IMG/VR virus record: IMGVR_UViG_3300042891_002161
Source of the DNA: a virus
Taxonomy: Duplodnaviria; Heunggongvirae; Uroviricota; Caudoviricetes
Strand: one strand, 5' to 3'
Length of the DNA: 64,000 bases
Both the position numbers and the translations under genes were made by a program. This document shows, in pieces, positions 5,167 to 35,703 of this stretch; positions within the stretch are counted from its first letter, which is position 1, and each line of letters starts with the position of its first letter. The notes under the pieces are model-generated. The model had not been told where the DNA came from. It did no database searches and saw nothing but the letters and a program-made list of their open reading frames with translations.

Positions 5167-5170
5167 ATAT

Positions 5171-6960: not shown

Positions 6961-7007
6961 TAGCGTTTATATTTCAATTTTGTTTTCATTTCTTTTAATT
7001 TATTTTA

Positions 7008-7079: not shown

Positions 7080-7091
7080 ATTTTATTTTAG

Positions 7092-7173: not shown

Positions 7174-7179
7174 ATGTTG

Positions 7180-7251: not shown

Positions 7252-7254
7252 TTT

Positions 7255-18157: not shown

Positions 18158-18179
18158 TTTACAAAGATAGTTAATTTTT

Positions 18180-18497
18180 TTAATTTATCAATAACTTATT
18201 TAATTTTTCTTCTCTTGATGCCTTCTTTTTCCAAACTTCATATGAGTTTGGTTCTTTTGAATGTTTATTATTTACAGCTAATAGATTACGTTCCATTATA
18301 GTTAAATAGAAATTTGTTTCACCTCTTGATTTATCATAATATTTTTCTTTATATTTTAATATAAATATTAAATCGTCAAAAATGACTTTTTTTAAGATAT
18401 TAAAATATGATAAATCTTCAAAAGAAGATAAAATACCTTTTGATAAAAGATAATCAAAATGATTTCTTATACTGGTTATATTTGATTCAACTTTCAT
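18180..18497 (-). CDS. hypothetical protein
   Basis: 105-aa ORF. Confidence 0.45.
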   Translation of the reverse strand: MKVESNITSIRNHFDYLLSKGILSSFEDLSYFNILKKVIFDDLIFILKYKEKYYDKSRGETNFYLTIMERNLLAVNNKHSKEPNSYEVWKKKASREEKLNKLLIN

Positions 18498-18739
18498 AGT
18501 AATTCTTCAAGATTTTTATCACGATTGTATGTTTTTTCATCATAAACTTCAATTACATAGCCTTCAATCTTGAATTCAGAAGCCCAAGCATCATATCCTG
18601 TCTTATATTGAGGATTATCTTTTAAAACTTTTTGAATTGCCTCATCTTTTGATTCAGCGACAACATCAAAACTTGGTCTTGATCCACTGTACCAACCACC
18701 ATTATTAAATGTAACTGTGTAAATCTTCATCATAAACAA
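18494..18739 (-). CDS. hypothetical protein
   Basis: 81-aa ORF with a 4-nt overlap to its neighbour. Confidence 0.45.
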   Translation of the reverse strand: MFMMKIYTVTFNNGGWYSGSRPSFDVVAESKDEAIQKVLKDNPQYKTGYDAWASEFKIEGYVIEVYDEKTYNRDKNLEELL

Positions 18740-18821
18740 AGATAAGGAATTAATTTGTTAAAAACAAATATTAAAGAAATGAGTAGAATTTAATATATAA
18801 GAAAAATCAATAGATTAAAAA

Positions 18822-21800
18822 ATGCCAATTCAAAGCTCATTTCCGACAGTCGCTGACCAGGTGATTTCTTCTAATAAGAATATTATAGAAATATTAGGTC
18901 AGATTAATAGTTTAACAACTACACAAGATCAATCCGTGAATATTAAAATTTATGATGAAAATGGAATTTTAAGAACTTTTGCAGTTCCTTCATTTACATC
19001 ATTAAAAAATGATATAGACAGATTGAATAATAATATTAATTCTCTTTATAGTATTGATGCAAATGGTTCAATGATTTCAACATCAAGTCAAAATAAATAC
19101 AAAAAGATAATTACTGTAGATTTAAATAGAGAACCAAATGCAGTCGGAACACTTGGAGCTCTTACTAAATTTAAAGCTGTTAATAACTGGTTTTTTGATG
19201 GACTTATGAGTCCTATCATTTCTGTTGAATTAGATTTAAGTGGTAAAGTAGAGAATAATGTAAGAAAAGTTTTAAGTAGAAGATATATTGTTGATTTTGC
19301 TTCTGATGGTTCAGGTAATTTAACAGCATTAGGTCAGTCAGCTCTTAATAGTTTCAATACACAATTCAGAGGAAATTCTTCAATATTAGTAACAGATTTT
19401 GAAAACTGGCATAATACAACACCAGGTGTTCTTTATCCTACAAATCCTCAATTTGATGAGCAAGTTTTTGATTTAGATCCACATGATTTATTATATGATG
19501 GTCAATTTAATGTGAGAGAAATACAACAAGATAAAATTAATAAAAAACTTTGGTATGTTTTAGATACATTAACCTATTTAGTTAGATCAAATAATGAAAC
19601 AGCTCAATTATCTATTGGTAGTGAAGTTATTATCAATTCAATTCAAACATCAACAAGATATAAAGTAATTGAAGTATCAACTGCTGAATCTAGTCCAAGA
19701 GTTAGATTTGAAAGAGTTGAAGGTATGGAAGCTATTCCAGTTGGAATTGGAACTCTTAAAATATATTCACCAGTTATTTACAATAAGAAAGTGAAAATAA
19801 GTGTTGGATATAACGAAAGAAATGTAATCTTTATTAAGCCTATAAATGCTGATCTTAATTTATTATCAAGAAATTGGAGTTTAGGTACTGGATTGTGGAC
19901 TAATGATTTAATATTAGACTCAACAGCTCAACAAAATGGTCTTACTATGGAACAGTTCTATACAGATTATGTATATGACTATGGAACAGTATTAAAAGAT
20001 TTAGTTGCTAAAAAAACACCTAACTCTTTAGCGGGTACACCGGCTTCACCAACATTAAATGCGGCTAACTTCAAAGTTGTTCAAATTAATAAACATTTAA
20101 CAGATACACCTGATTCAAATTTACTTAAACAAAAGCATAATTATCAATTAACATTAAACTCTGAAATTCAACAAATACAAGATTCTATTGTAAGTAAAAA
20201 TTCTAAATCTAAATTTGTTAGATTCAAATCAGAATCTGATAAAAAGCAAGTTAATCTTGAGATTGAAGAACTTTCAAGAAAAAAAGATAGTAAATCTAAA
20301 TTACTTAGTACTACAACTCAAGAGATTATTCAATTGTCTAATAGTCCTCAAACAAAGGTAAAACCTAAGTTTAGAATTAGAGGATTCTGGACTGTACCTT
20401 CAGCTGTTATAACAAGAGGTACAAAACCTCAAGAAGTTGTTCAGTTTAGAGTTCAATATAGATATTTAAGTAAAGATGGCTCAGAAGCACCTGTTGAAAC
20501 ATTTGCAATTGATGCTACTCAGAAAAAAGGAGCATTCTCAAATTGGAATGAATTTAAAACAGATGCAAGAAAAAGAACTTATAATAAAGGAACAGGTGAA
20601 TATACTTGGGAAATTGAAGATGTTGAAAAAGCAGATACACCAAATATCAATCAACTGGATTTAGATATTCAAGCTAATGAAAAAATTGAAGTTAGAATTA
20701 AATCTATATCTGAAGTGGGTTGGCCCGAATCTCCAGTAGAATCAGATTGGTCTGAAATTTTATCTATTGAGTTTCCAGACGATTTGAATAACGTATTAAA
20801 TGAAAATGACTTTATATTAAAAGCGGCTACTTCAGAAGATTTGAAAATTAAAATGAATCAAGAGTTATCATCTAAAGGTTTAGATGACCACTTAGCTGAT
20901 ACTATTGTTGTTAATAATGTTACTTTTCATCACGAGGCTACTAAGATTTTATCAGGAATGAAAGATGAGAATGGAGTTGCTTTAGACTTATTTACTTATT
21001 TAAAATCTCTACAAGAGAGAATTACTTCACTTGAAGAAAGAATACAAAGAGTTAAAGGTGAACTTGAAATTGTTATTCTTAGAAATAATCAAGAGTTTGT
21101 AGTTGCTAATGGTAGTGAGACTACATTTAATATTGAGTGCGAGGATTATCTTGATAACTATACAGGATCTGGTATACCAACTGGTAGAGTTTATGCCAAT
21201 AATATTTATGTAATTAAAGACTTTGTTGTTAAAGTTAGAAATAAATCAACAAGTTCTGCATTAGGTTTACTTTCTAATAGAACTTATTTACAAAATCCAA
21301 ACGTTTATAACACAGGAGTTCCTCAAACATTCTGGGTTAATGATCAAAATGAGTTAATAACATCTGATATCTCAGGACAAACAAGAACTCAATTAAATAA
21401 TCAATATTTATGGACTGTAAATTATGATTCAGTTTTAGAAACATCAGTTACTAAATTAACAGAGAATATAGGAAATACATTCAATACAAACGCATCAAAC
21501 TCTATCACCAGAGTTTTATCATCTAATGAATATAATGTCGGTTTTAATGAAACATCTATACTTTCATTTGTTAGTAATAATAAATCATTATTAGATCCAT
21601 CTAAATGGATAGATACAAATATTTCAGTTTCTTCTACAACTAAACTATTAACAACTATACACCCTGTTGTTCCTAACTTAGAAACAATTGTTGAAACAAA
21701 CTCTGAAAAAGTAAAAACAGTAAATACTGGTGATGCTAATTCTACTGTTATTCCAATTAATATTTATTTTAAAATGAACGCATTGGATAATAATCAACCT

Positions 21801-21989
21801 GCATTAAACTATAAATATATTAATCTAAATTCATCTAAACAGACAGTACAACATGTTAAGAGAGTTAAATTCTTCTTAGAAAATGAAGCTGAAAATAGAC
21901 CATTTATATTTAGTATTAAATTTAACATAAATAGAAGTAAAGTAATTGTTAGAAAGGTAACTAACGCAATTAACGCTTCTGTCAGATAA
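18822..21989 (+). CDS. large putative virion structural protein (1055 aa)
   Basis: Long uninterrupted ORF, Asn/Ser/Thr-rich with a coiled-coil segment. A TAATATATA motif lies upstream. It abuts the next giant ORF. Confidence 0.55.
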   Translation: MPIQSSFPTVADQVISSNKNIIEILGQINSLTTTQDQSVNIKIYDENGILRTFAVPSFTSLKNDIDRLNNNINSLYSIDANGSMISTSSQNKYKKIITVDLNREPNAVGTLGALTKFKAVNNWFFDGLMSPIISVELDLSGKVENNVRKVLSRRYIVDFASDGSGNLTALGQSALNSFNTQFRGNSSILVTDFENWHNTTPGVLYPTNPQFDEQVFDLDPHDLLYDGQFNVREIQQDKINKKLWYVLDTLTYLVRSNNETAQLSIGSEVIINSIQTSTRYKVIEVSTAESSPRVRFERVEGMEAIPVGIGTLKIYSPVIYNKKVKISVGYNERNVIFIKPINADLNLLSRNWSLGTGLWTNDLILDSTAQQNGLTMEQFYTDYVYDYGTVLKDLVAKKTPNSLAGTPASPTLNAANFKVVQINKHLTDTPDSNLLKQKHNYQLTLNSEIQQIQDSIVSKNSKSKFVRFKSESDKKQVNLEIEELSRKKDSKSKLLSTTTQEIIQLSNSPQTKVKPKFRIRGFWTVPSAVITRGTKPQEVVQFRVQYRYLSKDGSEAPVETFAIDATQKKGAFSNWNEFKTDARKRTYNKGTGEYTWEIEDVEKADTPNINQLDLDIQANEKIEVRIKSISEVGWPESPVESDWSEILSIEFPDDLNNVLNENDFILKAATSEDLKIKMNQELSSKGLDDHLADTIVVNNVTFHHEATKILSGMKDENGVALDLFTYLKSLQERITSLEERIQRVKGELEIVILRNNQEFVVANGSETTFNIECEDYLDNYTGSGIPTGRVYANNIYVIKDFVVKVRNKSTSSALGLLSNRTYLQNPNVYNTGVPQTFWVNDQNELITSDISGQTRTQLNNQYLWTVNYDSVLETSVTKLTENIGNTFNTNASNSITRVLSSNEYNVGFNETSILSFVSNNKSLLDPSKWIDTNISVSSTTKLLTTIHPVVPNLETIVETNSEKVKTVNTGDANSTVIPINIYFKMNALDNNQPALNYKYINLNSSKQTVQHVKRVKFFLENEAENRPFIFSIKFNINRSKVIVRKVTNAINASVR

Positions 21990-22003
21990 AATAATTTTTA
22001 AGT

Positions 22004-25000
22004 GTGAAGAGCTTCGCTATATTAAGAACCAACGTGGGATTAACAACTAACATCAAAATAATGGTGGATAGTAGTTATAATTTATCACTTAGTAGTATTG
22101 AATCAAAAGATGAATTGTCAAATAGCAAATTCAAAAAAGTTAATTTTGTTAAAAAGAATTACTATGATGAATTGATAACTTATTTCTATGATGGTTTACC
22201 AGCAGATACTGCATTTTATATAAAGTATGAAAATGATGTAGATTCAATGTCTAATGATTATTCAGCGCAGTATGATGAAATTTATCAATATGGTGCTAGA
22301 AATATAACTAATAATAAAAATTATAAAGAAGAGTTTGAATACTTTGCTCCACTTTATATTTCACCAAACAACCTACCAAAGAGTTTTATTATTTTTAGAG
22401 TAGATGGTGCTGGAATTGACACAATAACTAAGGATAATTTTAAAAATAATATACTTAGTAAATTTAAGACAGTTAAAATATTTGATTTAACTAGAAACAC
22501 CGGTATTGGTGAATGGTTAGATTTTAATTTTAATAAAAATTCTTTCTTTCCTTTAACGCCATTTGAAATGAGTTTTCAAAATTTAGAATTTTCTAAATGG
22601 AATGGTATAGATTATGAAACTGGTGGTTACACAAGTAAGTCACAATTTTTAGAATCAATTTATGAAGAAGAAAAAGAAATATATGAATTTGAAAAATTTG
22701 TATTTGATGGATATCAAAATAATAAATTAGTATTCCCTAATATACTTAATATGTCATTTTTGTTTGATGATACTCCAGCAAACTCTGACACTCTTAGAAA
22801 ATGGTCTATAAATAGATATTATGGATTCTATTTAGAAGATATGATTAAAGTAAAGGCTATTTCACCTTATATAACACCTTTTATTAAGTCAGATGCTGTT
22901 GTACAAGAAGGTAATATACTTTATTCACCAACAGGTGATCCATTTGTAGAAGGATTTTTAGACCATAAAGTTTATTATACCGAATATAACGGTGAGTATT
23001 ATAAAGTTGAAAAGTTCCAAACTGTAACACCAAATGTTTTACAATCAGTTCAAAGTGGAAATGTTGTTACACAACAATATACCAATCAAGTAACAAACAA
23101 ATATAGAATCATATCAGATATTGATTTAAAGGGTAAACAATCTATGTTAAATAAAGGATTTGGTACTATTGCCGGTGATGATACAATCTATCCTAATAGA
23201 TTATTAAATTATGATAATAGTAACTATCTATTTGATGAGTGGGATTCTGCTGATGCTTGGTTAATTGAGATTGATGGTATGTACCACAATTTAGTTAGAG
23301 AAACTGGTCCGGAAGCAGTAAATAATGTTAAAAAGGTTACAACTAGAATTAGAATCAATAGTGATTACTCGTTCAAAGTAAATCAAAATGATTACATGTA
23401 TTGGATTAATAAAAACGATCCAAGTTATACTAAGAAAGTAAGTTTTGTAGTTGATAAAGATAATGCTCCTAAAAAATTCAATATTTATAAACTTAAATTT
23501 ACAGATATTAAAGATTTTGATGATAAAATTATTGATACTGAGTATTCTAAATATGAATATGAAAATAAGTTTACTTTAACCGATACGGATGAAACTAAAA
23601 TGTATCTTACTAATTTAGATAGTAAAACTTTTCCAAAGAATTATGATGACTTTACTTATAACTCGGAAGTAGTTAATATTCCAGTTTCATCTGAATATAC
23701 CGCTAACTATGAAACATTTAAGATAGATAGAGGTGATCTTTCAGAAATATGGAGAAAGAATGCTACTTATTGTAGATGGGGGTTTCAAAACTCGTTATCC
23801 GCAAATGATGTTCCATACTTACTAAATAATTCATTGACGTTTGAAGATTATAATAGAACAGCTAATCCTTTTGATCCTGATACAAAAAGAATTGAAAGAA
23901 ACTTAGACTATTTTTATACTATTAACTCTTCTACATCATCTTATATTCATCATACTTTGCATGTTGAGAAACAAACAACAGCTGGTATAGATAGTACATT
24001 TAAGTTTGAGCTTAATAAATATTTAAACTTAGCAACTTACTCTGTAGGTACTGGTTCAGCAACTTATAGTTTTGATTATTTTTCTTATTTCTTTGAAAGA
24101 AATGCTAATTTTGATAACTTTAAAATAAATAAGAATGTTAAAAAATACTCATTACTTAACACTGGTAATAACTCAATACCAAACATATCATTGTTTAAGG
24201 GTATTAAGTTTTTATTTTATAGTGTAGATGATATTAAAAAAGATGAAACTGGTGCAATAAGTGTCTTAAACTTAAAAACATCAAATGAGTTTGATGGGTA
24301 TAAATTTTCTATTTTATTATCTGATAATGACTGGTCAGTTGTAGATTCACCAAATGGTAATAATATTGGTGTTTTAACTCAATCTCAAAATTTAATGAAC
24401 TGGACTATATTTGATGACTGGAAGATGGACAAAACTTATAACTTAGGTGATATAGTAGTAAAAGATGATATTTTATACAAATCATCAATCATAAGTAATA
24501 TAACAACAAACCCTGTAAGAGAATACGCATTTGCTAAAAAAGCTATGTCTGCTCCCTATAATCAAGTTGGTTGGGCACCATACGGATCAACACCTTCAAA
24601 TGGCAAATCTGTTTTTTGGAGTCCAGTTGGTACTTATCCAGGTTCTGGAGTTGGTGATAATGCTGATATTGTTTATAATAATGATGATTACTATTTTTAT
24701 AATGCAAGCGGTTCTCAAGATTTCTGGAACCCAACTAAATCAGATTCCATTACAGGCTATACAACGAATGAGGTTGTTTTATTTAAAGGTAAGTATTATA
24801 GATCAATGACTGCTTCAAATCGTTATAGACCAGACTACCAACAACCTTATAAAGTAACAAGATCCTATAGTTCAATTAGAAGTGGTTTAGAAGGTATATC
24901 TGTTTTTGAAAGTGTAGGTAGTTATTATTGGACAGAGACTCAACCATCTAATCCAAAGTGGAAAACCATAGGTGTTTGGAATCCAAGTGTTTCATATAAT

Positions 25001-26110
25001 AATACTTACATTGTTCACAACGGAGTAGTTTACTATTGTATTTCATCAGCAACTGGAAATGAACCAGGTGTATCAAATGATTGGAAAAGACAGTATAGTT
25101 TAGTACCAGATACTTCTATAGTTTACAACTCGTCAACAAATCCTATAATTGAAATGAATGATTCTTATTATATGATTAATACCAATGCTTCAAATTCAAC
25201 TTTAGAAAATGGTATTAACATTTATATAAATAAAAAATGGAAAAATATATTAGTTAATATAAATATTGCTGATAATACTATACCAAATGTATCAGAGAGT
25301 GATAGAGATATTATGTACGGTGAACTTAATAAAAAATTAACAGCTAATAATTTTATACAATGTATAAATGATTTATCAAATAAATATGGATTTACAGACT
25401 ATGTAAACTATGTAATTATCAATGAAGATGGAAGTATTAAAAGATATAACTACAATAATATAGAAGGTTTGCCTTATTATATGTCTTGTGAGACACCTGA
25501 TGAGGTTGTTATGAAACTTTATTCAATTGTAAAAAAGCCTATCAGTTTGCCTAAGAAATTAAAGCCAATTAATATTCTATCATCTATTTCGGCAAATTTA
25601 TCAAACCTAAACTACTACAATAATATATCAGTTGCTGCTGAAATATTATCAAATAAAGATACGCCTAGACCAAGAGTTAATTTTCATGGCGGTAAAAATA
25701 TAACTGAAGATGTTATTTATAGATTTAGTGGATTTTATATGCCTATTTTTTATGATATACAATTATTTAATAAAAATTTCTTCACATCTTCTGTTGGTAA
25801 TTATAAATTTGACACAACTTTAACTGACTTTGGATTAATAAAAGAAAGAAAGGTAAGAAAGATAAATCATAATGGTTCGGTTCTTAAATTAAATAATGTA
25901 AAAGATGAAAAATCTATATATCCAATGGTTCAAGAATTTGGATATATAACAATTGATACATTTATATTTAAATCAACTTGGGATTTGAACTATCATTATA
26001 TAACATCAAACAATACGATTATTGCTTCAAATTTAGAATCTAAATCAAGATTAGTTAGAAATCCTGGTTTGATTGGTATTCAAAGTAGAATTAAAAATAT
26101 AAATTTATAA
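22004..26110 (+). CDS. large putative virion structural protein (1368 aa)
   Basis: Long ORF with Asn/Tyr-rich beta-rich composition typical of tail or baseplate proteins. Confidence 0.55.
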   Translation: MKSFAILRTNVGLTTNIKIMVDSSYNLSLSSIESKDELSNSKFKKVNFVKKNYYDELITYFYDGLPADTAFYIKYENDVDSMSNDYSAQYDEIYQYGARNITNNKNYKEEFEYFAPLYISPNNLPKSFIIFRVDGAGIDTITKDNFKNNILSKFKTVKIFDLTRNTGIGEWLDFNFNKNSFFPLTPFEMSFQNLEFSKWNGIDYETGGYTSKSQFLESIYEEEKEIYEFEKFVFDGYQNNKLVFPNILNMSFLFDDTPANSDTLRKWSINRYYGFYLEDMIKVKAISPYITPFIKSDAVVQEGNILYSPTGDPFVEGFLDHKVYYTEYNGEYYKVEKFQTVTPNVLQSVQSGNVVTQQYTNQVTNKYRIISDIDLKGKQSMLNKGFGTIAGDDTIYPNRLLNYDNSNYLFDEWDSADAWLIEIDGMYHNLVRETGPEAVNNVKKVTTRIRINSDYSFKVNQNDYMYWINKNDPSYTKKVSFVVDKDNAPKKFNIYKLKFTDIKDFDDKIIDTEYSKYEYENKFTLTDTDETKMYLTNLDSKTFPKNYDDFTYNSEVVNIPVSSEYTANYETFKIDRGDLSEIWRKNATYCRWGFQNSLSANDVPYLLNNSLTFEDYNRTANPFDPDTKRIERNLDYFYTINSSTSSYIHHTLHVEKQTTAGIDSTFKFELNKYLNLATYSVGTGSATYSFDYFSYFFERNANFDNFKINKNVKKYSLLNTGNNSIPNISLFKGIKFLFYSVDDIKKDETGAISVLNLKTSNEFDGYKFSILLSDNDWSVVDSPNGNNIGVLTQSQNLMNWTIFDDWKMDKTYNLGDIVVKDDILYKSSIISNITTNPVREYAFAKKAMSAPYNQVGWAPYGSTPSNGKSVFWSPVGTYPGSGVGDNADIVYNNDDYYFYNASGSQDFWNPTKSDSITGYTTNEVVLFKGKYYRSMTASNRYRPDYQQPYKVTRSYSSIRSGLEGISVFESVGSYYWTETQPSNPKWKTIGVWNPSVSYNNTYIVHNGVVYYCISSATGNEPGVSNDWKRQYSLVPDTSIVYNSSTNPIIEMNDSYYMINTNASNSTLENGINIYINKKWKNILVNINIADNTIPNVSESDRDIMYGELNKKLTANNFIQCINDLSNKYGFTDYVNYVIINEDGSIKRYNYNNIEGLPYYMSCETPDEVVMKLYSIVKKPISLPKKLKPINILSSISANLSNLNYYNNISVAAEILSNKDTPRPRVNFHGGKNITEDVIYRFSGFYMPIFYDIQLFNKNFFTSSVGNYKFDTTLTDFGLIKERKVRKINHNGSVLKLNNVKDEKSIYPMVQEFGYITIDTFIFKSTWDLNYHYITSNNTIIASNLESKSRLVRNPGLIGIQSRIKNINL

Positions 26111-26111
26111 T

Positions 26112-26801
26112 ATGAGAAGAAGTTATATATCACCAGAATATACAGAATTATCAGCATATGGTACTTTCAATATGGTTGAAGAAAGTAATTTCTTTGGTGC
26201 TAAAATGCTAGAAGTTGAGGATACTATTAGTATATCAAATCAAAATATAATCTATTATCAAAAATCAACAGGTGAGCAAGTTGATATATCAATTGAATCA
26301 TCTTTAACATCTCAAGTTTATTCGGCTTCTGATAATATGAAATCACATCAAACTCTCGTTTTAGATCCTACTCAGTTAAACTATCAAAAAGACGGTAATA
26401 CTAAATGGGTTTTAACAATAGATTTAAAAGACATATTAACTGATTATCTTTTTGCCATTATGAAAAGATATAGAACATTTGAAGGTATTAGTAATAACTT
26501 AACAAGAACTAATGATGTTAACACAGCTATTAGACAATATATATCTAATAATGTCTTGAATAGATATAAATTTAGTAAGTTAGACCTTTATGTTTCCTAT
26601 AAAGATTTAATGCAACAAAATGTTTTAAGATATAAAAATACTTGGAACTCAAATATAGTATCTGATGCTAATTTATTAAAAAAGGCTCAAAAAGATTTAG
26701 CCTTTGATGAATCTGAATTAAAGATTTATTTTAGTCAAGAAAAGTCATCATCTCAGTATAATTTTGATTACTATTTTAATATTTTATTTGAAAAAATCTA
26801 A
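26112..26801 (+). CDS. hypothetical protein (likely structural, co-transcribed)
   Basis: Starts 2 nt after the upstream stop. Confidence 0.5.
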   Translation: MRRSYISPEYTELSAYGTFNMVEESNFFGAKMLEVEDTISISNQNIIYYQKSTGEQVDISIESSLTSQVYSASDNMKSHQTLVLDPTQLNYQKDGNTKWVLTIDLKDILTDYLFAIMKRYRTFEGISNNLTRTNDVNTAIRQYISNNVLNRYKFSKLDLYVSYKDLMQQNVLRYKNTWNSNIVSDANLLKKAQKDLAFDESELKIYFSQEKSSSQYNFDYYFNILFEKI

Positions 26802-26831
26802 ACAAGTGCTTACTTATTCCATAAAACTTAT

Positions 26832-27242
26832 ATGGAAAATGAAGAATTATATCGTAGTTTAGTAATACTATTGAAAATGTTCAAAAATAGACCTTATCAC
26901 TTAGCTAAGTATTTGGTAGAAAACTCTGCACTTACTGAAGAGTTTATAAGAAAACTTAAAAATAGTGATAGATTAAAAGAGCTAAAAGATGATGAAAAAT
27001 CTTCTGAGCAAAAGCTCTTACCTGTTCCCGTGCCTGTTTATTTTGTAGATATATCTCAAATGGAAAACTTTTATAGTTCATTCATTGATGATATCCAACA
27101 ACTTTCTAAACAAAAAAGTATAGAAGAAATCACTAAGGAACTAAATAAAAAACTTGACGACTTAATTAAAAAAGAAAAATACGAAGAAGCGGCAAGAGTT
27201 CGTGATTATATGATGAGAAATAATATAAAAAGAAATTTATAA
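26832..27242 (+). CDS. small coiled-coil protein with a UVR-like motif
   Basis: C-terminal KKEKYEEAARVRDYMM resembles the UvrB/UvrC UVR domain. Confidence 0.4.
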   Translation: MENEELYRSLVILLKMFKNRPYHLAKYLVENSALTEEFIRKLKNSDRLKELKDDEKSSEQKLLPVPVPVYFVDISQMENFYSSFIDDIQQLSKQKSIEEITKELNKKLDDLIKKEKYEEAARVRDYMMRNNIKRNL

Positions 27243-27299
27243 TTTTTCTAAACTAAAGAAGCCGAACTGAATATATTAACTTGTAACTCTATAAAAAAT

Positions 27300-28397
27300 A
27301 TGAATATGAATAATAACACAATTGGAAATGAGGAAATGATGGATATCTTTGATGAAACCATATTTACTCGCAAAGGTACTCGCAACAAAAGCACTAAAGA
27401 GTACCAAGAAATGATTAAACTTTATAAACTTGACGAAATCGCTATTCCAGAAGAAGGTCAAGTAGTATCCGCTAAATACGTTGGCATGGCAGCAGGTCAA
27501 TTTGTATTCAGTGTAGTTGGATACAAAGATGACGTAAGAGTTGACGATAAAGTTGGTGAATCAAAATACTTCAAGAACTTAAACTTGAATGATATGATTG
27601 ACGTTTTAATCACTGAAGTTAATCAAGATGCTTTTATGATTAAAGGAAGTGTATCTTCTCTTTATGAATCAAGAGCTCATGCTAAACTTAAAGCACTTGT
27701 TGAAGGTGAATCAGTTATGGTTACAGTTAAGAGTCTTAACCCAGCTGGTTACGATGTTGAATTAAATCACGGTGGTGTTACACTTCCAGGATTTATGCCA
27801 AACACCTTAGCCGGAATCAACAAGCTACACGACCCAATGTCTATCGTAGGACAGACATTCAGTGTAATGATTGAGTCTTATGCTCAAAACGAAGGAACTT
27901 ATATCGTTTCAAGACGTAAGTATCTTCAAACTCTTATCCCTGATGCGGTTAAAGAACTTGAATATAATAAAATATATCAAGGTCACGTTACAGGAACTAC
28001 ACCATTTGGTGTGTTCGTGGAGTTCAACGAATGCTTAACTGGAATGATTCACAAGGCAAACGTTAATCCTGAATGGGCAGAGAAGTTAACTTCAATCACA
28101 CCAGGATTTGAAATTGACTTCTACATCAAAGAAGTGATTAAAGATAAAATTATCTTGACTCAAATTCTTCGTGAGACTCTTTGGGACAACATCAAAAACG
28201 GTCAAATCATTGAAGGTACCGTTAAAGACACCAAAGCATTTGGTACTTTAGTAAACCTTGATGATGAGACAGTGGGTCTTATCCACACTTCAGAAATGGA
28301 GAAGCTTGGTAAGAAATTCACTTCGGGTCAACCGATTAAAGTGAAAGTTTTAAGTGTAGATCGCATGTCTCGTAAAATCTTCTTGACCTTAGGTTAA
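27300..28397 (+). CDS. ribosomal protein S1-like protein (about 4 S1/OB domains)
   Basis: Repeated S1 signatures: GQVVSAKYV..AAGQFVFSV; GHVTGTTPFGVFVEF.ECLTGMIHKANV; GQIIEGTVKDTKAFGTLVNLDDETVGLIHTSEM...GQPIKVKVLSVDRMSRKIFLTLG. Confidence 0.7.
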   Translation: MNMNNNTIGNEEMMDIFDETIFTRKGTRNKSTKEYQEMIKLYKLDEIAIPEEGQVVSAKYVGMAAGQFVFSVVGYKDDVRVDDKVGESKYFKNLNLNDMIDVLITEVNQDAFMIKGSVSSLYESRAHAKLKALVEGESVMVTVKSLNPAGYDVELNHGGVTLPGFMPNTLAGINKLHDPMSIVGQTFSVMIESYAQNEGTYIVSRRKYLQTLIPDAVKELEYNKIYQGHVTGTTPFGVFVEFNECLTGMIHKANVNPEWAEKLTSITPGFEIDFYIKEVIKDKIILTQILRETLWDNIKNGQIIEGTVKDTKAFGTLVNLDDETVGLIHTSEMEKLGKKFTSGQPIKVKVLSVDRMSRKIFLTLG

Positions 28398-28415
28398 GAT
28401 TGATTCTACCAGAAA

Positions 28416-28450
28416 AAGAAAAGCCTCAGACTTATCTGAGGCTTTTTTTA
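28416..28450. terminator. rho-independent terminator (bidirectional)
   Basis: AAAAGCCTCAGActtaTCTGAGGCTTTTTTT. Confidence 0.7.
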
Positions 28451-28927
28451 TTTATATAGTTGTAATATTAGATTAAATCTATCAGGTACATCACCTTCAT
28501 CATATCCACCATATTCTAAATGAACTTTTGATTCTTTATTAGTATGAGTATTACTACCAATGTATTGATAATCTTCTTCTTCTTTTATCTTATTAAAACA
28601 AGATTGAACTTCTAATACCAATTCATTTAATTCCTCAGTGTATTTAACTAAATCTATTATTCTTGAAGGTCTATATTTTTTAGAAGCCATATTAGCCAAG
28701 TTAAGAAATATTCTATATCTTTTGACTTTTTGTTTATAACTATTTCCACCCAAACCTTGTCCTTGATAGTGTGTTATTTCACTTTCATATAATTCAGAAG
28801 TGGCGCCCATATCTATAAACTCAGCAAATACAGCATCAAAGAATTTTTTATCATCTTCTGTAAAGTCTTTAGCTAATCTATCTTCATCTGGAACCCAATT
28901 TTCATTAAATCTATTTAAGTATCTCAT
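28448..28927 (-). CDS. hypothetical acidic protein, CTS-like N-terminus (MRYLNRFNEN)
   Basis: 159 aa. Member of the N-terminal leader family. Confidence 0.5.
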   Translation of the reverse strand: MRYLNRFNENWVPDEDRLAKDFTEDDKKFFDAVFAEFIDMGATSELYESEITHYQGQGLGGNSYKQKVKRYRIFLNLANMASKKYRPSRIIDLVKYTEELNELVLEVQSCFNKIKEEEDYQYIGSNTHTNKESKVHLEYGGYDEGDVPDRFNLILQLYK

Positions 28928-29406
28928 GATTTTACTTCAATTACATATTGACCAGGGTAAGCTCTGAAATCCGACTTAACCATTACCGTAATAACAGTTA
29001 ATCTGAATTCATTATCACCTGGCACTAATTGACAAACAACATTTAAGTTATTTGTTTTATTTTTAATTAAAAATCTATTTGGCTCACCTTCTTTGACACC
29101 TTTAGTTGGGTAATTATCTTCTAATTGATAGATATTGAATTTATCTTGCATGAGAGCAATAGTCAACTCTTCAATTGCTAATTCAATTGTGTCAATGATA
29201 TCCTCATCTTTAATTTGATTTTCTAAAGCACCGTGTCTGAATTGTCTATCACCAGCATGATTTACTTTCTCAACATCAATTCTGATTTCAACAGGTTCTT
29301 TTAAGTAAGCAATTTCCTTAGGAGGTCTACTCGCAGCAATTCTTCTATCAATATAAGGATTGTTAAAAGCTTCAAATGTTTTTAGATTTTTCATTAATAT
29401 ACCCAA
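28924..29406 (-). CDS. hypothetical protein, CTS-like N-terminus (MKNLKTFEAFNN)
   Basis: 160 aa with a 4-nt overlap to the downstream gene. Confidence 0.5.
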   Translation of the reverse strand: MGILMKNLKTFEAFNNPYIDRRIAASRPPKEIAYLKEPVEIRIDVEKVNHAGDRQFRHGALENQIKDEDIIDTIELAIEELTIALMQDKFNIYQLEDNYPTKGVKEGEPNRFLIKNKTNNLNVVCQLVPGDNEFRLTVITVMVKSDFRAYPGQYVIEVKS

Positions 29407-29432
29407 TTTTTGTATTGGTATATATTAATTTA

Positions 29433-30176
29433 TTAAGCCAGTATTTTTAAAACAATATCTTCTGTAAACTCTCTCATATCATCAACACTAATTGTGTCAA
29501 TTGTATCTTTAGAAGAGTGACAGTTGTATAACATAGAAAAGTCTAAGTAAGTATTATCATCCCATTTAACTTGAGATTTACCTTCATTCAAAGGTGGAAT
29601 AGGATTAATAACACAAGAGTCAATTCCATTCTTTCTAAAAGTAACAGAATCGTTATAAGGAGTATTTGTGATAGGACAATCAAAGATTGATTTAATATGA
29701 TCCGATAGTTTACCAGGATAATTACCAATAAAGAAATACTTACCACCTTTACCAGTTAATTCTAAGTTAAGAACCCAGTCAATAGTGCCAAAATAACCTT
29801 CATTAATCTGTTCTGATGCTCTTTGAGAGCCTAAACCACCACATTCTTCACCATCTAAAAGAACAACGTTTATATGAGGCATTAACTTTTTAATTGATAT
29901 AGCATTAATAACAGATGCTGAGTTGTCGTTAGCATTATCAATGTGTGGATTACTAACATCGTGATGAGCAACCACCATTCTATCAGAGTCGCCTTTTAAG
30001 ATAAGATTATAACAAGTAGTTCCTCTTGACTGATAAGTATCTAACTCATAGTCAATATTCTCAGACTGTAAAAGATCCATAAGAAATTGTACCCTTGGTG
30101 TAGGTTTATCTTCATTTGAGTAAACACTACCAAAGTTTCTTACTTTACAAAAATCATATATCTTATTATACAACAT
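29433..30176 (-). CDS. M28-family zinc peptidase-like protein
   Basis: HHDV (HxD), NANDNSASVINAISI (the GxDDxxG(V/A) metal-ligand region) and LLDGEECGGLGSQ (the EE motif). Confidence 0.55.
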   Translation of the reverse strand: MLYNKIYDFCKVRNFGSVYSNEDKPTPRVQFLMDLLQSENIDYELDTYQSRGTTCYNLILKGDSDRMVVAHHDVSNPHIDNANDNSASVINAISIKKLMPHINVVLLDGEECGGLGSQRASEQINEGYFGTIDWVLNLELTGKGGKYFFIGNYPGKLSDHIKSIFDCPITNTPYNDSVTFRKNGIDSCVINPIPPLNEGKSQVKWDDNTYLDFSMLYNCHSSKDTIDTISVDDMREFTEDIVLKILA

Positions 30177-30178
30177 AA

Positions 30179-30712
30179 TTAAACTTTTTCATCAAAAAAT
30201 ACTTCACAGTGATCTTTAGAATAAATACCAGTAATTCCTCTTGGATAAATTTCACCACCCATTTCTTTACTTCTACCCCATTTCATAATAGTAGACATTT
30301 TAGAGAATGACTTAGCCCAAACTTTGATATCTGTTTTAATCCAAGATCCATTTCTTTGTAAAACATCTTTGTGGTCGGTATATTCATCTAAGTGATGCCA
30401 GATTTCCCCAGTATCTTTTCTGAATTCTTTTCTCATATTAGAGATAGACTTTTCATATCTTTTATTGAAAGCATCCCATTGTTCTTCGGTCCAAGTTGAT
30501 GAATCTTTAGGGTGTTTAGGAACAGTATTTGGTTGATATGAACTCATTCCACCTATTAAGAAAAGTTCTTGAGCAATTTTAGGCATAGCATAAAACCCAC
30601 GAGTAGCTGGTGGTTGATGATAAGTCTCTGGTGTCTTTGAAAAACCTTTTTGATTTTTCAAATCTAAACCACCAAATCTTACAAATGTGAATATATCTTT
30701 ACCTTTTAACAT
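30179..30712 (-). CDS. hypothetical protein
   Basis: 177-aa ORF. Confidence 0.5.
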   Translation of the reverse strand: MLKGKDIFTFVRFGGLDLKNQKGFSKTPETYHQPPATRGFYAMPKIAQELFLIGGMSSYQPNTVPKHPKDSSTWTEEQWDAFNKRYEKSISNMRKEFRKDTGEIWHHLDEYTDHKDVLQRNGSWIKTDIKVWAKSFSKMSTIMKWGRSKEMGGEIYPRGITGIYSKDHCEVFFDEKV

Positions 30713-31005
30713 TATTCTAATATCTTTCTTAATTGAAATTCACGCCAAACATCCATAGGCATAAAGTGTTTATCATCAAATATACTAATAAATTCACCAG
30801 TTGTAACTTTACTCACACTTACTAAATTCTTTTCAGCCATTTCAATCCAATCATCAATTTGATATTGTTCACCAACTTCTAATAAGTAGGTCATGCCATA
30901 CATCTTATTAGTCACACAAATTACAATATCTCCTTTTCTGTATCTTATCATTATACAAATATACATAAATATTTTAAAATAAAAAAACCCTTTGAAATTA
31001 ATCAA
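30712..31005 (-). CDS. hypothetical protein
   Basis: 97-aa ORF. Confidence 0.45.
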   Translation of the reverse strand: MINFKGFFYFKIFMYICIMIRYRKGDIVICVTNKMYGMTYLLEVGEQYQIDDWIEMAEKNLVSVSKVTTGEFISIFDDKHFMPMDVWREFQLRKILE

Positions 31006-31018
31006 AGGGTTTTCTTTA
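30981..31018. terminator. bidirectional rho-independent terminator
   Basis: AAAAAAACCCTTTGAaattaaTCAAAGGGTTTTCTTT. Confidence 0.65.
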
Positions 31019-31028
31019 ATAGAAGTGA

Positions 31029-32951
31029 TTACTTCTTGTCTTTCCTTTGGACAGAAAGATCTTCAACAGGCACATCAGTAGTTACTGACTTCACTGTTGT
31101 GTCATTCATACTCTTTCCCATTTGGTTACCCATCATGTTTAAGATTTGAACTCCCAATAATCCATCTATTGCACCGTTCCCGCTTTGTCCACCTCCGTTG
31201 ATTAACAAGTCTGGCATGATTTTCACACCGTTTTTACCAATCTCTTCAGTAACCTTAAATGTTGTAAAGTTTTCTTTACCCATCGCCTCAACGGCTAGTT
31301 TGTATGACTCAGCAGTAGATCTACCCTTGGCAAGGATAGCTTCTGCTTCAGCATTACCAATCAATGATGTTCTTGTAGCATCTGCTTCAGCTTTTAATTT
31401 TGTAGATTCAGCATTAGCCTCAGCCGCAATTTTAACAGAATCCGCATCACCTTTAGCTTTCTTAACAGAAGCATCAGCGTGACGTTCAGCAATTTGAACA
31501 CCTTGATCAGCTTTTACAACTTCACCCTGCATATCCGCAATCGCAGTTTCTTTTTCATAAGTTTGACGAGAGATAGCGGCTTTCTTTTGAGTTTCAAAAG
31601 TTACTTCTTGCTCTTGAGCAATCTTACGGTCAGTTAACGTTTTCATCAACTCTTGTGGTGGTACGATATCACCAATCAAAGTATCAACAGCGTGAACGTT
31701 ATATTCATCTAATACTTTAGAAATGTGTTGTTTCGCTGAATCTTGACGTTCTTTACGAGTAGTTAAGAAAGCGATTACATCAGAGTCTTGAGCACTATTA
31801 CGGAAGTAGTTACCAATTGTTGGTTCTAACACTTGAGATACCAAGTTATTCATATTACCAAATCGTGCAATTACTTTAGGTGCTTCTGTCATTGGAATGT
31901 GAATAATTTGTGATACGTCTAAGTTGAATGGAAAACCATCTTTAGAACGAACAGTGATTGTGTTAAGTCCTTTATCTAAGTTGTGAGACTCAGTGCGAGC
32001 ATTCGCCCAATTAAGAACTAAGTTTGTTGTTGGTACTAACTCAATCTTATTAGTGTACTTATTGATAGGGTATTTACCAGGTCCGAATGGTTCAGCCCAA
32101 ACACCTTTTTGTCCTTTACCAACTAAGTTACCATGTTTGAAGTTAACACCGGTTACGTCAACACCATCTTCACCAACGAAAGAGATAACAACACCAACGT
32201 GACCAATTGGAATCTCAGTCATTTGTACTTCTTCTACTTGAACAGCCCAAGGATTTAAGTTGTAAGTACCAGCCAAGATAGTTTGTTGTTGTAAACCACG
32301 ATTACCACCTAACTCAAGGAATTTATCAAAATCTTGGAAGTTATTATGTCCTTCAACATTTTTACCCGCAATCTGACCATTCTCCAATGGTTCACCATCT
32401 AATGATGTGATTACACCCACCATATTTTCTTGAATAGTAGCTTGTTTAACAATAGACACTTCAAATAAGTGAGTATTGATTTTATAAACTCCATTTGTGA
32501 TAAAAGATGATTGACGACCTTTTTGACCACCGTTAGTTAAGAATGTAACAGAATCTTGAAAGTTTTCACATTCTACTCTACGTCCTAAGATTCGTCCAGT
32601 TTGTGGAACTAAACCATCTTTTGCCGATACTAAACCAATATGTCCTTCTGGGATAACAACGAATCCCTGCATATCAATGTTATACTGCCAAGGCCACATC
32701 CACCAATGTAATCCGGGTGAAAGCATCTTTGCTTGTAAGCCAGCCTCACCATTTACCGCAATAATACGGTCACCTGTAAGTTCTTTATGTTCTCCAAAAA
32801 GAACAAACTTTTTTGTTACTAAACCAATCTTGTTCTCAGGAACAATAACTAGTCCGAAAAATACTCGTAGTATGAATTTATACATCACTACACAAAGGAT
32901 GATTGCTGCTATCCACCAATACCCTGCCATAAAATTTAAAATGTTTGTCAT
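31029..32951 (-). CDS. SPFH/band-7 (flotillin/YqiK-like) membrane protein
   Basis: N-terminal transmembrane helix. SPFH core (FFGLVIVPENKIGLVTKKF...GLHWWMWPW). C-terminal Ala/Glu-rich coiled coil (AEANAESTKLKAEADATR...AEAEAILAKGRS) as in flotillins. Confidence 0.7.
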   Translation of the reverse strand: MTNILNFMAGYWWIAAIILCVVMYKFILRVFFGLVIVPENKIGLVTKKFVLFGEHKELTGDRIIAVNGEAGLQAKMLSPGLHWWMWPWQYNIDMQGFVVIPEGHIGLVSAKDGLVPQTGRILGRRVECENFQDSVTFLTNGGQKGRQSSFITNGVYKINTHLFEVSIVKQATIQENMVGVITSLDGEPLENGQIAGKNVEGHNNFQDFDKFLELGGNRGLQQQTILAGTYNLNPWAVQVEEVQMTEIPIGHVGVVISFVGEDGVDVTGVNFKHGNLVGKGQKGVWAEPFGPGKYPINKYTNKIELVPTTNLVLNWANARTESHNLDKGLNTITVRSKDGFPFNLDVSQIIHIPMTEAPKVIARFGNMNNLVSQVLEPTIGNYFRNSAQDSDVIAFLTTRKERQDSAKQHISKVLDEYNVHAVDTLIGDIVPPQELMKTLTDRKIAQEQEVTFETQKKAAISRQTYEKETAIADMQGEVVKADQGVQIAERHADASVKKAKGDADSVKIAAEANAESTKLKAEADATRTSLIGNAEAEAILAKGRSTAESYKLAVEAMGKENFTTFKVTEEIGKNGVKIMPDLLINGGGQSGNGAIDGLLGVQILNMMGNQMGKSMNDTTVKSVTTDVPVEDLSVQRKDKK

Positions 32952-32996
32952 CTTTTTCTTTTTTAATTGTTATTTAATTTAATTTAACTTATTTAA

Positions 32997-33485
32997 TTAT
33001 TCGTGTTCGTATTCGTCAACACTTACACCATCTACTGTTACAGTGATTTCAGCATGGTCTCCAAATTGAGACATAAAGAAATCCTCATCAAAGTTACGCA
33101 AAAATTCTCTAATTTCATCAGAAGATTTTACTAATTCTGGATCATAATTTAAGTTTGGAACTTCTGTACGACCTTCATACTCTCTTTTTTCACGGTTCCA
33201 AGTACCATAATTTGTGATTTTAGTTTCACTAATCCAATCAGACTCATCTACCGACACACCATTGACATAGATATAGTCTGTATTAGCCGAGAAAGTACAG
33301 GTTTCGCCGTCATTAAAATAAGGTGTGTATTGATTCCAACCAAAAGATTTTACTTTAGGATTTTCTTCAAAAATTGTCTTTGTTAAATCTGTAAAGATTT
33401 TGTTAGAAGCTTCTAACATTTCTTCTTTCAATTTTTTAATTTCTTCTTGTTTCTCGCGAAGAACTGCGAATTTTTCGTTATTCAT
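32997..33485 (-). CDS. hypothetical protein
   Basis: 162-aa ORF. Confidence 0.5.
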   Translation of the reverse strand: MNNEKFAVLREKQEEIKKLKEEMLEASNKIFTDLTKTIFEENPKVKSFGWNQYTPYFNDGETCTFSANTDYIYVNGVSVDESDWISETKITNYGTWNREKREYEGRTEVPNLNYDPELVKSSDEIREFLRNFDEDFFMSQFGDHAEITVTVDGVSVDEYEHE

Positions 33486-33507
33486 ATTTGTCGTATATTA
33501 TCAATTT

Positions 33508-34233
33508 TTATTTTGTTTCAATTTTTTCAAGAATATCTTTCAAAGACATATTTAATAAAGCAGAGTAATCATCTGATGTAATTCCTAAATTAGTTCCAGA
33601 CTTTTGACAAGCCCAATCAATAATAGAAAGATGATGTCTGTTTGGATCAATAATTGATTTAGATAGCATACTCATTAGTTCTAATTCTTTATTAGTCACT
33701 AATTCAATCTTTCTTATGTCTTTTGATTTTACAATTACTGGTTCTTCACCATGTAATACAGAGTTTAAAGAAATCTCACGAGCTTCTTGAGCTGTTAATT
33801 TTCTAAATCTCCAAGAAGAAAATTTCAATGTACGAGGAATACCAACAAACTTAATACTTTTTTCAACGTGAGTATAAGGTTGTTTATTCCAACCCATTTT
33901 TTGAGAAGAAACTGATTTCAATTCTTCAATCTGATACATACAACCCTTACCAAGAGTTTTGTAACTATCTGATGTACAAACAACAATATCACCTTTCGTG
34001 AGTTGTTCAAAAGTAAGTTGTTCTAAATGAGTTGGTTGTACAATAATATTTGTTTTAGGTAAAGGATTGCCGTCTGTTGTTGTGAAATTATCAACAACAA
34101 ATCTTCCAATTCCAAGAATTTCTACAGTGCCTTCTTGCCAACGTTGGTTAGTACCACTATTGTAAAGACTTCCCGTCTCATACCGAACACCTTTAACTAA
34201 TCTCTTAGTTGGTCTTTTACAAATTACTATCAT
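33508..34233 (-). CDS. hypothetical protein
   Basis: 241-aa ORF. Confidence 0.5.
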   Translation of the reverse strand: MIVICKRPTKRLVKGVRYETGSLYNSGTNQRWQEGTVEILGIGRFVVDNFTTTDGNPLPKTNIIVQPTHLEQLTFEQLTKGDIVVCTSDSYKTLGKGCMYQIEELKSVSSQKMGWNKQPYTHVEKSIKFVGIPRTLKFSSWRFRKLTAQEAREISLNSVLHGEEPVIVKSKDIRKIELVTNKELELMSMLSKSIIDPNRHHLSIIDWACQKSGTNLGITSDDYSALLNMSLKDILEKIETK

Positions 34234-34234
34234 A

Positions 34235-34630
34235 TTAATCTAAATTTACTTTAATATTTCCTTTTTGTGAAAGTTTTTCAAAAGATGATGGATGACCTTT
34301 GATGCCATTTTGCATCCAATTAGCAAACTCCATGTTTTCAATATAATCTTGAGGAGTAGGAATAAATCTCATACCAAAATCTTCTAAGATGTGTTGCTCA
34401 CAAACATCTTTCACTGAAAACTCTCTACCAGCCGAATTTTTCATAGTGTACCCAAAAATAGGTATCATTACTTCATGAATCCAAAAACTTGTGTGAGTTA
34501 GTACTCTATGTCTGTTATCAGATACATAAGCCTTAGAACAATCCATTTTCATATGGATATGAAGATAATCTTCTGGTTCGCCTCCAAACTTTCGGGCAGA
34601 GGACTTTGAGTGTATATAAGCGTTAGCCAT
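34235..34630 (-). CDS. hypothetical protein
   Basis: 131-aa ORF. Confidence 0.5.
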   Translation of the reverse strand: MANAYIHSKSSARKFGGEPEDYLHIHMKMDCSKAYVSDNRHRVLTHTSFWIHEVMIPIFGYTMKNSAGREFSVKDVCEQHILEDFGMRFIPTPQDYIENMEFANWMQNGIKGHPSSFEKLSQKGNIKVNLD

Positions 34631-35095
34631 TTATATTTCTATGTTAATTTTATTGAATGCTTCTTGTAAATCTTTTTTAGAAAACTTATTGAGTACAAAG
34701 GTAAGTAAATCTTCTGAATTGTCAAATTTATTTAAAATATAATCTTTCATAAACTCGGTATAGTCAGATTTATCAGCTATTCCAAGTTGTAACATTTTTA
34801 CATTTCTATCCCACTGAACTCCACCGTTAACAACAAATTTGCCCTCAATATTTTTAATTTCAGTAGTAAATTTTCTACGATAGTCTGTTGTGGCTGGTGT
34901 AGTTACTCCTGTGTTATAATCATAAGTTTCCCAATCACGAATAGTCATTTCATGAACTCGTTCTGGATAATCATGTATATTGTCGCACAAATCTTTTGCG
35001 TCTCTTAAACCAAGACCACTACACTCTTTTATTAGCTTAACAAAAGCCAATTTCTGAGTTGTTGGTTGGATTAATTTTATTTTAATAGTTTTCAT
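34631..35095 (-). CDS. hypothetical protein
   Basis: 154-aa ORF. Confidence 0.5.
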   Translation of the reverse strand: MKTIKIKLIQPTTQKLAFVKLIKECSGLGLRDAKDLCDNIHDYPERVHEMTIRDWETYDYNTGVTTPATTDYRRKFTTEIKNIEGKFVVNGGVQWDRNVKMLQLGIADKSDYTEFMKDYILNKFDNSEDLLTFVLNKFSKKDLQEAFNKINIEI

Positions 35096-35703
35096 TAATA
35101 ATGCTTTGATACGATACTTTGTTCTAAACTTAGATAAGAGTCAATAACAAATTGGTCAATTTGATGAACTTGGTCTAATACATTTCTACCATCGTAGTTA
35201 TGAACTACAAAGTTAGCCATTTTATTTTTATCTAAATCGTCAATTTCTGTTCTCATTAAATAAGCAATATCAGAAATTTTATTCTTTGTTAATTCACGAC
35301 ATCTTTCCATTCGTGTAATTTTTGGACAAAAAACAGCAATGTTATGATTCATTAATTTATGCCATTCTTTTTCAAAAAGAACCGATGAATGAAATATAGT
35401 ATAAATAGATGATTTGTTTTTTTCTGAGAATTTATCATAAGCAGACATTAATTCATGTTGAGCAGATTCAAGAACAATTTCAGCTTCTTTTTTTGTTTTA
35501 ATTAAACGAGGATCAATATAACCGGAATTATTATGCAAATGTTTTAGTTTTGATCTAATATCAGAACTTACTGTAATATCATGATTTATGATAAATTTCA
35601 AAACAATATCAGCCTCAAAAACAGGAATAGTTAATTTCCTGAAAACATCACAAATCTGGTTAGTGCCAGAATATCTATTGCCCGAAAGTCCAACTTTTAT
35701 CAT
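35095..35703 (-). CDS. dephospho-CoA kinase (CoaE)-like protein with a degenerate P-loop
   Basis: MIKVGLSGNRYSGTNQICDVFRKLTIPVFEADIV parallels CoaE M..IGLTGGIGSGKST...F...G..V.DAD.IA, but the P-loop Lys/Thr are missing. Confidence 0.35.
   Translation of the reverse strand: MIKVGLSGNRYSGTNQICDVFRKLTIPVFEADIVLKFIINHDITVSSDIRSKLKHLHNNSGYIDPRLIKTKKEAEIVLESAQHELMSAYDKFSEKNKSSIYTIFHSSVLFEKEWHKLMNHNIAVFCPKITRMERCRELTKNKISDIAYLMRTEIDDLDKNKMANFVVHNYDGRNVLDQVHQIDQFVIDSYLSLEQSIVSKHY

Follow-up and report, generated by a model that had tools for sequence, protein, structure and literature searches.

A viral DNA stretch of 64,000 nucleotides (nt), IMG/VR record IMGVR_UViG_3300042891_002161 (hereafter the window, to which all positions refer), carries a gene for a 365-amino-acid (aa) protein whose architecture resembles that of a shortened ribosomal protein bS1. 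Its tandem S1-type domains (D1 to D4) are collinear with OB1-OB2-OB3-OB4 of bS1, including a signature specific to OB2. The gene is real as judged from its sequence; the product is bS1-like in its architecture while lying outside curated rpsA membership, and a ribosomal function is plausible. With a probability of about one in two, we read it as a phage bS1 cut down to the N-terminal helix and the first four OB domains, which would dock on the 30S subunit, hold A/U-rich leaders and favour initiation on phage mRNAs devoid of Shine-Dalgarno (SD) motifs. S1 genes in huge phages are already known: Al-Shayeb et al. 2020 (Nature 578:425, PMC7162821) described a "possible rpS1", linked it to missing SD motifs and put forward the translation-initiation hypothesis. 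Since both the idea and the gene class have been published, our analysis is a refinement and not a discovery. What it adds is a discrete protein family, mostly of 345-420 aa and, in the scans performed, nearly confined to phage contigs; its collinearity with the N-terminal helix and OB1-OB4 of bS1; a divergence of OB1 and OB2 beyond Pfam recognition while positions aligned with the ribosome anchors of Escherichia coli bS1 were kept; and a three-domain version in the Lak megaphages that ends after D3.

A shortened bS1-like architecture

The open reading frame (ORF) lies on the + strand exactly where the initial annotation had placed it and begins with ATG, although many homologues use the alternative start at 27306, two codons downstream. 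Its length in DNA of 29% GC and the existence of homologues with E values down to 1e-235 (352-373 aa, 67-99% identity) indicate that it is not a chance ORF. A small antisense ORF overlapping it (27276..27500) was unsupported, and no other ORF with an S1 domain was found in the window.

Several comparisons align the protein with bS1. Residues 22-364 are collinear with positions 20-373 of the 580 positions of NCBIfam model PRK06299.1-2, and residues 50-364 with positions 16-342 of the 516 positions of TIGR00717. A phmmer search of the PDB sequences retrieved E. coli bS1 (E = 9e-14), matching query residues 95-363 to chain residues 63-345, that is, from the end of D1 to D4. A family profile built from 112 members (the query and representatives of clusters at 50% identity) aligned in one collinear piece with residues 5-349 of E. 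coli S1 (167 bits) and likewise in one piece with residues 3-377 of Flavobacterium bS1 (9zcd_A, 159 bits). The aligned span thus corresponds to the N-terminal helix followed by OB1-OB4, and D5 and D6 match the profile only secondarily, through its D3-D4 part. When profiles of single phage domains were compared with the six E. coli domains, D2 matched best to D2 (10 bits) and D4 to D4 (34.5 bits), while D3 matched best to D4, with D5 also among its best matches. For the D1 profile, E. coli D4 (11 bits) outscored E. coli D1 (3.3 bits), and we consequently dropped a domain-by-domain orthology for D1, which is too diverged to be assigned by its own sequence and is placed by its position and by the full-length alignment.

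At the level of Pfam, the S1 family (PF00575) matches the whole protein with E = 3.7e-21 and two stretches only pass its cut-off (gathering score of 22 bits). The four domain segments were also scanned one by one: D3 (residues 220-292) and D4 (297-365) alone reach 34.1 and 44.7 bits, respectively, and the N-terminal segment (residues 1-50) gave no Pfam match. The initial annotation had counted three clear S1 signatures and probably a fourth. On sequence, two are clear (D3 and D4), D2 carries a motif of the bS1 OB2 type and D1 is weak; on fold, the count of four holds. An AlphaFold2 model computed from a 25-sequence family alignment predicts four five-stranded barrels of the OB/S1 type at residues 55-117, 138-204, 226-289 and 303-364, with a predicted local distance difference test (pLDDT) of about 75-90 inside the domains (79-91 for the fourth barrel). 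Even the diverged D1 is modelled with its five strands (55-64, 67-71, 79-82, 99-108 and 113-117). Mean pLDDT is 75, and the low predicted template modelling score of 0.44 reflects undefined orientations between domains. Such undefined orientations are usual for bS1.

A Foldseek search of the PDB with this model ranked bS1 chains of 30S complexes first (9gut_B at E = 2.7e-22, then 9guv_B, 9gux_B and 6h4n_y), and single S1 domains such as 2k52, 2k4k and 4nnh match it at a root-mean-square deviation of 1.9-2.9 Å. Together with the best match of phage D2 to E. coli D2, this speaks against generic OB folds unrelated to S1, and the collinear rpsA models, the family profile and Foldseek jointly bear out the proposal that the protein resembles a shortened multi-domain bS1 and not a single-S1 accessory protein. 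Other assignments were rejected. For the multi-S1 virulence regulator CvfB, the CvfB_2nd model stays at 17.6 bits, below its cut-off of 27, and structure 3go5 ranks sixth in Foldseek (E = 1e-10), behind bS1; matches to Rrp5, PNPase, RNase R and Tex extend over one domain only or miss the cut-offs. PHROGs yielded no family for the protein.

Compared with bS1 of E. coli (RpsA, 557 aa, six domains) and Flavobacterium johnsoniae (591 aa, 9zcd_A), the phage protein shares the collinear order of N-terminal helix and OB1 to OB4 and, with the E. coli protein, also the OB2 signature, equivalents of F9, K43, F120 and F130 and canonical OB3 and OB4 domains. It differs by the absence of OB5, OB6 and the C-terminal tail, by an N-terminal segment of roughly 50 residues where E. 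coli has about 20, and by an identity of about 20% in the Foldseek alignments. In domain number and length of the S1 part, it resembles the four-domain S1 of low-GC Gram-positive bacteria (PRK06676) and the IspH-S1 fusion (PRK00087). The latter is the best-scoring NCBIfam model (collinear over residues 25-363), but the phage protein has no IspH part and scores far below the cut-offs of both models. The family profile showed no preference among four cellular S1 proteins (E. coli, Flavobacterium and two long cellular S1 sequences; 159-191 bits). Because these scores are so alike, an origin from one cellular lineage was dropped and no particular lineage can be named as the source.

Other phages encode related or comparable proteins. 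The homologue of Prevotella phage Lak-C1 (MK250029.1, an ORF at about 328-1446 of its locus) belongs to the same family, with 39% identity over D2-D3. It possesses an N-terminal FNW aromatic motif and a YAQELYD helix ahead of D1, followed by domains 1-3, and unlike the window protein it carries an acidic tail behind D3 and then terminates at a TAA codon; tblastn matches to the Lak genomes are restricted to residues 141-289 because the fourth domain is missing there. The cultivated jumbo cyanophage PhiMa05 also encodes a bS1, likewise proposed to replace the host protein. In the published phylogenies it groups with Vampirovibrio proteins, and its authors were led to suggest acquisition from a Vampirovibrio-like host, and it is accompanied by five other ribosomal protein genes (PMC13157829). 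On the basis of that description, the window family stands apart, being phage-restricted and deeply diverged from any cellular S1.

Proposed ribosome docking, SD-less leaders and competing explanations

In E. coli, bS1 stacks F5 and F9 of its N-terminal helix against F32 of uS2, places K43 in the zinc pocket of uS2 and stacks F79 against uS2 H18; K117, F120 and F130 of OB2 form an mRNA pocket, while D2 has no detectable RNA-binding activity (PMC10123108). In the family profile alignment, the second predicted helix of the phage N-terminal segment is aligned with this uS2-binding helix, so that F5 corresponds to M38 of the window protein (L, M or F in 83/112 members) and F9 to Y42 (Y in 59/112). 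Further along, K43 corresponds to K76 (K or R in 93/112), F120 to Y151 (Y or F in 109/112) and F130 to F165 (F in 107/112). F79 falls opposite A111, next to F112, the neighbouring column holding Y or F in 63/112 members, and K117 falls opposite P148 in a column that is not conserved. These conserved equivalents are the main argument that the protein may dock at the bS1 site.

The translation signals of the window bear on what such docking could achieve. GGAG occurs at -22..-3 upstream of only one of the 61 ORF starts, and GAGG upstream of none. The leaders (-20..-3) consist of 55% A and 7% G; the 306 internal in-frame ATGs used for comparison are preceded by DNA with 36% A and 19% G. Among the leader positions, A is commonest at -3, -11, -15 and -17. 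This matches the SD-less, adenine-rich pattern of the Bacteroidia (PMC13000457) and fits the predicted host range, the host presumably belonging to the Bacteroidia. Ribosomes of F. johnsoniae are unable to use SD sequences, and from published work on this organism bS1 is thought to matter most in the Bacteroidia for SD-less, A-rich leaders. Since initiation in these bacteria does not involve SD pairing and is believed to rely on bS1, a phage-encoded bS1 is a plausible lever for host takeover. The initial annotation had suggested that the protein could promote translation of leaderless or SD-less, AT-rich phage mRNAs. The second part is reasonable given leaders that are SD-less, A-rich and G-poor; the leaderless part is unsupported and runs against the behaviour of E. 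coli, in which leaderless mRNAs are not known to require S1 and are favoured by ribosomes without it.

As a separate observation on gene starts, the Bacteroidetes-type -7 promoter motif TAnnTTTG lies 4, 9, 22 and 23 nt upstream of the starts of the genes at 16328-18157, 42737-43471, 35095-35703 and 60632-60946, respectively (all on the - strand). Nine copies occur within 80 nt of the 61 starts where about 3.9 are expected, and their proximity suggests that some genes have very short or nearly absent leaders.

During infection, as we picture it, the protein would use its N-terminal helix and domains 1-2 to dock on the platform of the host 30S subunit, where it would touch uS2 at the place that host bS1 normally occupies. 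Domains 3 and 4, the canonical S1 domains, would hold the single-stranded A/U-rich leader RNA, and initiation on the SD-less, A-rich phage mRNAs would be favoured, either beside host bS1 or in its place. Binding to uS2 and the 30S subunit, displacement of host bS1 and preference for phage mRNAs are all predictions. They bear on the wider question of whether phage-encoded ribosomal proteins enter host ribosomes, on which bS1 gives the least certainty, given how many proteins contain S1 domains. The family offers handles for a binding test, namely its bS1-collinear architecture, the conserved residues Y42, K76, Y151 and F165, and the natural three-domain Lak variant.

A number of results weigh against this docking model. 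The protein scores 39-108 bits against the curated rpsA equivalog models, whose cut-offs range from 368 to 918, and passes none of them, falling 3- to 20-fold short; its best scores against the respective cut-offs are 108.4/624 (PRK00087), 102.6/524, 95.8/577 (TIGR00717) and 88.6/368 (PRK06676). Eight further members from across the family (359-391 aa) fail as well, with 60-166 bits, while two long cellular S1 proteins retrieved in the same search clear the same cut-offs easily. D1 (residues 50-120) and D2 (133-207) gave no Pfam match when scanned alone, even at E <= 10, whereas the corresponding domains of bS1 from E. coli and Flavobacterium all exceed the Pfam S1 cut-off, at 32-47 bits. The presumed ribosome-binding half is thus the most diverged one. 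The D1 profile also scores higher on E. coli D4 than on E. coli D1. The N-terminal region is modelled at low confidence (pLDDT 34-59) with its first 30 residues disordered. The anchor pattern of E. coli is not universal even among cellular bS1 proteins, since the profile alignment places V and M of Flavobacterium bS1 against E. coli F9 and F120. In F. johnsoniae bS1, residues 1-42 fold into a helix-loop-helix that binds uS2 and uS8 (published work), and the phage N-terminus can be placed in register with it (EE..F....F against EEFLANFNWHNF), but the match is not significant (3.3 bits, reached in 125/2000 shuffles), and this likeness to the Flavobacterium helix-loop-helix (FLANFNWHNF) was set aside as a lead only. 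Finally, no experimental study of any phage S1 was found in the literature searched, and Al-Shayeb et al. themselves call a true rpS1 hard to confirm and leave its role "on or off the ribosome" open (PMC7162821).

A bolder version of the docking model, which we hold tentatively and consider rather unlikely in full, is that the protein is the first known case of a virus-specific "minimal bS1" that replaces the six-domain host bS1 on uS2 and so makes phage-specialised ribosomes that prefer A-rich, SD-less phage leaders, the Lak protein being an even shorter, three-domain form. Anchor residues would then have been kept while the other surfaces of OB1 and OB2 were remodelled and OB5 and OB6 discarded.

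Many of the same observations could alternatively describe a bS1 descendant that no longer sits on the 30S subunit and acts as an RNA chaperone or mRNA protector, coating or unfolding A/U-rich phage transcripts (for example as a shield against host RNases or for hand-over to ribosomes) or serving as a cofactor of a phage enzyme, in the way that host S1 assists T4 RegB and Q-beta replicase. This explanation is the best of the competitors, though improbable on balance. It would account for the failure at all rpsA cut-offs, for the divergence of D1 and D2 beyond Pfam detection, unlike in cellular bS1, and for a canonical RNA-binding signature kept in D3 and D4 only; the three domains and acidic tail of the Lak protein further imply a flexible architecture. 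Host S1 has several documented off-ribosome roles in phage biology (PMC13157829), and an off-ribosome role is among those that Al-Shayeb et al. allow for. Yet the equivalents of the uS2 anchors and of the OB2 pocket are among the best-conserved residues of the family, and a protein that binds RNA off the ribosome would not obviously require them. D2 moreover contains the family's strongest block of conservation (FMPNTLAGINKL) even though E. coli D2 shows no detectable RNA binding (PMC10123108), and collinearity with the N-terminal helix and D1-D4 is strict across more than 100 clusters at 50% identity.

Less probable still is a dominant-negative decoy that would take the bS1 site on uS2 and, for want of domains 5-6, recruit no host mRNA, its main effect being the shut-off of host translation. 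The conserved anchor equivalents would suit such a decoy, as would the lack of D5, D6 and the C-terminal tail, the family profile covering residues 5-349 only of the E. coli protein. In E. coli, over-produced N-terminal S1 fragments displace native S1 and shift the mRNA choice of the ribosome. However, the phage mRNAs are themselves SD-less and A-rich, so that blocking bS1 would hurt the phage unless its mRNAs bypass S1, and the canonical, highly conserved D3 and D4 argue for productive RNA binding.

A phage family in huge genomes

The protein belongs to a large family. At E <= 1e-5, it matches 2372 database clusters, of which the top 120 are all 352-373 aa long, and in the library clustered at 50% identity 126 representatives are retrieved at E <= 1e-30, most of the full-length ones measuring 345-420 aa. 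Among 25 members spanning 67-98% identity, mean column identity is 75%, which together with the tightly held family length we count as a sign of purifying selection. The other strongly conserved blocks, besides the D2 block mentioned above, are the linker joining D2 to D3 (EGTYIVSRRKYL) and parts of D3 and of D4. The protein itself is not on record according to an exact-sequence look-up.

No match to the phage genome collection was obtained by megablast. Using tblastn, the closest full-length matches are in the uncultured phages LR756502.1 (642 kb, 67.5% aa identity) and LR745206.1 (635 kb, 65.7%), followed by LR756501 / LR756503 (735 kb, 44% over residues 51-364), LR756504 (41% over residues 51-364) and LR756500 (31% over residues 51-360), all of uncultured phages; the Lak genomes of Prevotella megaphages match with 39% identity over the D2-D3 portion given above. 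The LR-record phages appear to be huge phages of Al-Shayeb et al., who grouped all five of their genomes above 634 kb with the Lak phages in the "Mahaphage" clade, predicted to replicate in Bacteroidetes (PMC7162821). The window protein falls in the same family as the "possible rpS1" of this clade, occupies the same syntenic position in LR756502.1, comes from a window that likewise has no identifiable SD motifs, and would have the same proposed role in initiation; it thus shares the features of that class (a multi-S1 protein, a huge phage, SD motifs missing). While Al-Shayeb et al. described proteins with "up to six" S1 domains, the lineage of the window has four, two of them visible to Pfam.

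That the gene is phage-encoded is established by synteny. The window block 16328..34630 is collinear with the complete genome of LR756502.1, in which the S1-like gene again follows genes of 1055, 1368, 229 and 136 aa at an identical position, and two JGI contigs (135 kb and 254 kb) carrying close relatives show the same arrangement. Two further surveys used two short peptide patterns and therefore miss distant relatives. In IMG/VR, 169 viral contigs encode a relative, the best 80 being 41-98% identical and located on contigs of up to 675 kb, while among 185,579 species-representative (GTDB) genomes only two close members were detected, both on contigs of metagenome-assembled genomes, labelled "uncultured Flavobacteriales" (1.8 kb) and "Candidatus Muiribacterium halophilum" (43 kb). 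Both are probably phage contigs binned into bacterial genomes. An ordinary bacterial S1 of a four-domain lineage, present through cellular contamination or a mis-binned host rpsA, could be suspected from these two genomes and from the JGI annotation, which names several close homologues "ribosomal protein S1", but it is hardly credible and is excluded by the synteny, besides which homologues sit on viral contigs of up to 675 kb, the rpsA cut-offs are failed even for the four-domain Firmicutes-type PRK06676, and the 1.8-kb and 43-kb contigs are fragments.

The two very large genes on the 5' side of the S1-like gene (18822-26110, + strand; 1055 and 1368 aa) are kept in LR756502.1 at 44-69% identity. 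On its 3' side, just beyond the terminator-like hairpin, two genes at 28448-29406 (- strand; 159 and 160 aa, with no family matches) have no counterpart in the collinear region of LR756502.1 and form a small variable island inside the conserved block. The 1055-aa gene matches the unnamed PHROG phrog_29329 and one of the four upstream genes has a UVR motif; these four genes gave no functional clue.

Coordinates and other features of the window

The positions of the gene, its domains and other annotated features are collected in Table 1. The terminator-like hairpin is placed between the stop codon of the S1-like gene and the convergent gene.

Table 1. Coordinates of the S1-like gene, its predicted domains and other features of the window
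Feature	Position	Strand	Description
Four-domain S1-like protein, complete ORF	27300..28397	+	ATG start, 365 aa; collinear with rpsA models
N-terminal segment, residues 1-50	27300..27449	+	Two predicted short helices (11-17, 33-41) before the first barrel (AlphaFold2)
Domain 1, about residues 51-120	27450..27659	+	Predicted diverged OB barrel at the position of bS1 OB1 (AlphaFold2)
Domain 2, about residues 133-207	27696..27920	+	Predicted OB barrel with bS1 OB2 signature GY.VEL ... FMPNTLAG
Domain 3, about residues 220-292	27957..28175	+	Canonical S1 RNA-binding domain, FGVFVEF ... GMIH (Pfam)
Domain 4, about residues 297-365	28188..28394	+	Canonical S1 RNA-binding domain, FGTLVNL ... GLIH ... 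DRMSRKI (Pfam)
Bidirectional terminator-like hairpin	28416..28449	both	15-bp stem, T/A runs on either side (terminator scan)
Collagen-triple-helix-repeat protein	873..2531	+	
tRNA genes	4515..7480	-	Array of nine genes: Ser-GGA, Arg-ACG, four Lys, two Phe, His
NAD-dependent DNA ligase	16328..18157	-	
M28 peptidase	29433..30176		
SPFH/Band-7 protein	31029..32951		
154-aa ORF	34631..35095	-	Partial Pfam match to the C-terminal domain of ribosomal protein L7/L12
Dephospho-CoA kinase	35095..35703	-	
M16 peptidase	37919..39034		
DnaJ-like chaperone	53117..53830	-	
SbcC/Rad50-like ATPase	56421..58169	-	

The 154-aa ORF is located about 6 kb from the S1-like gene. Its L7/L12 match covers residues 6-40 only and barely exceeds the cut-off (26.5 against 25.9 bits), and a related contig carries a homologue with the same weak match. 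The ORF may represent another gene akin to those of ribosomal proteins, or the match may have arisen by chance. Three of the Lys tRNA genes measure 84-86 nt, which is unusually long for tRNA-Lys, and may contain introns or have been mis-called.

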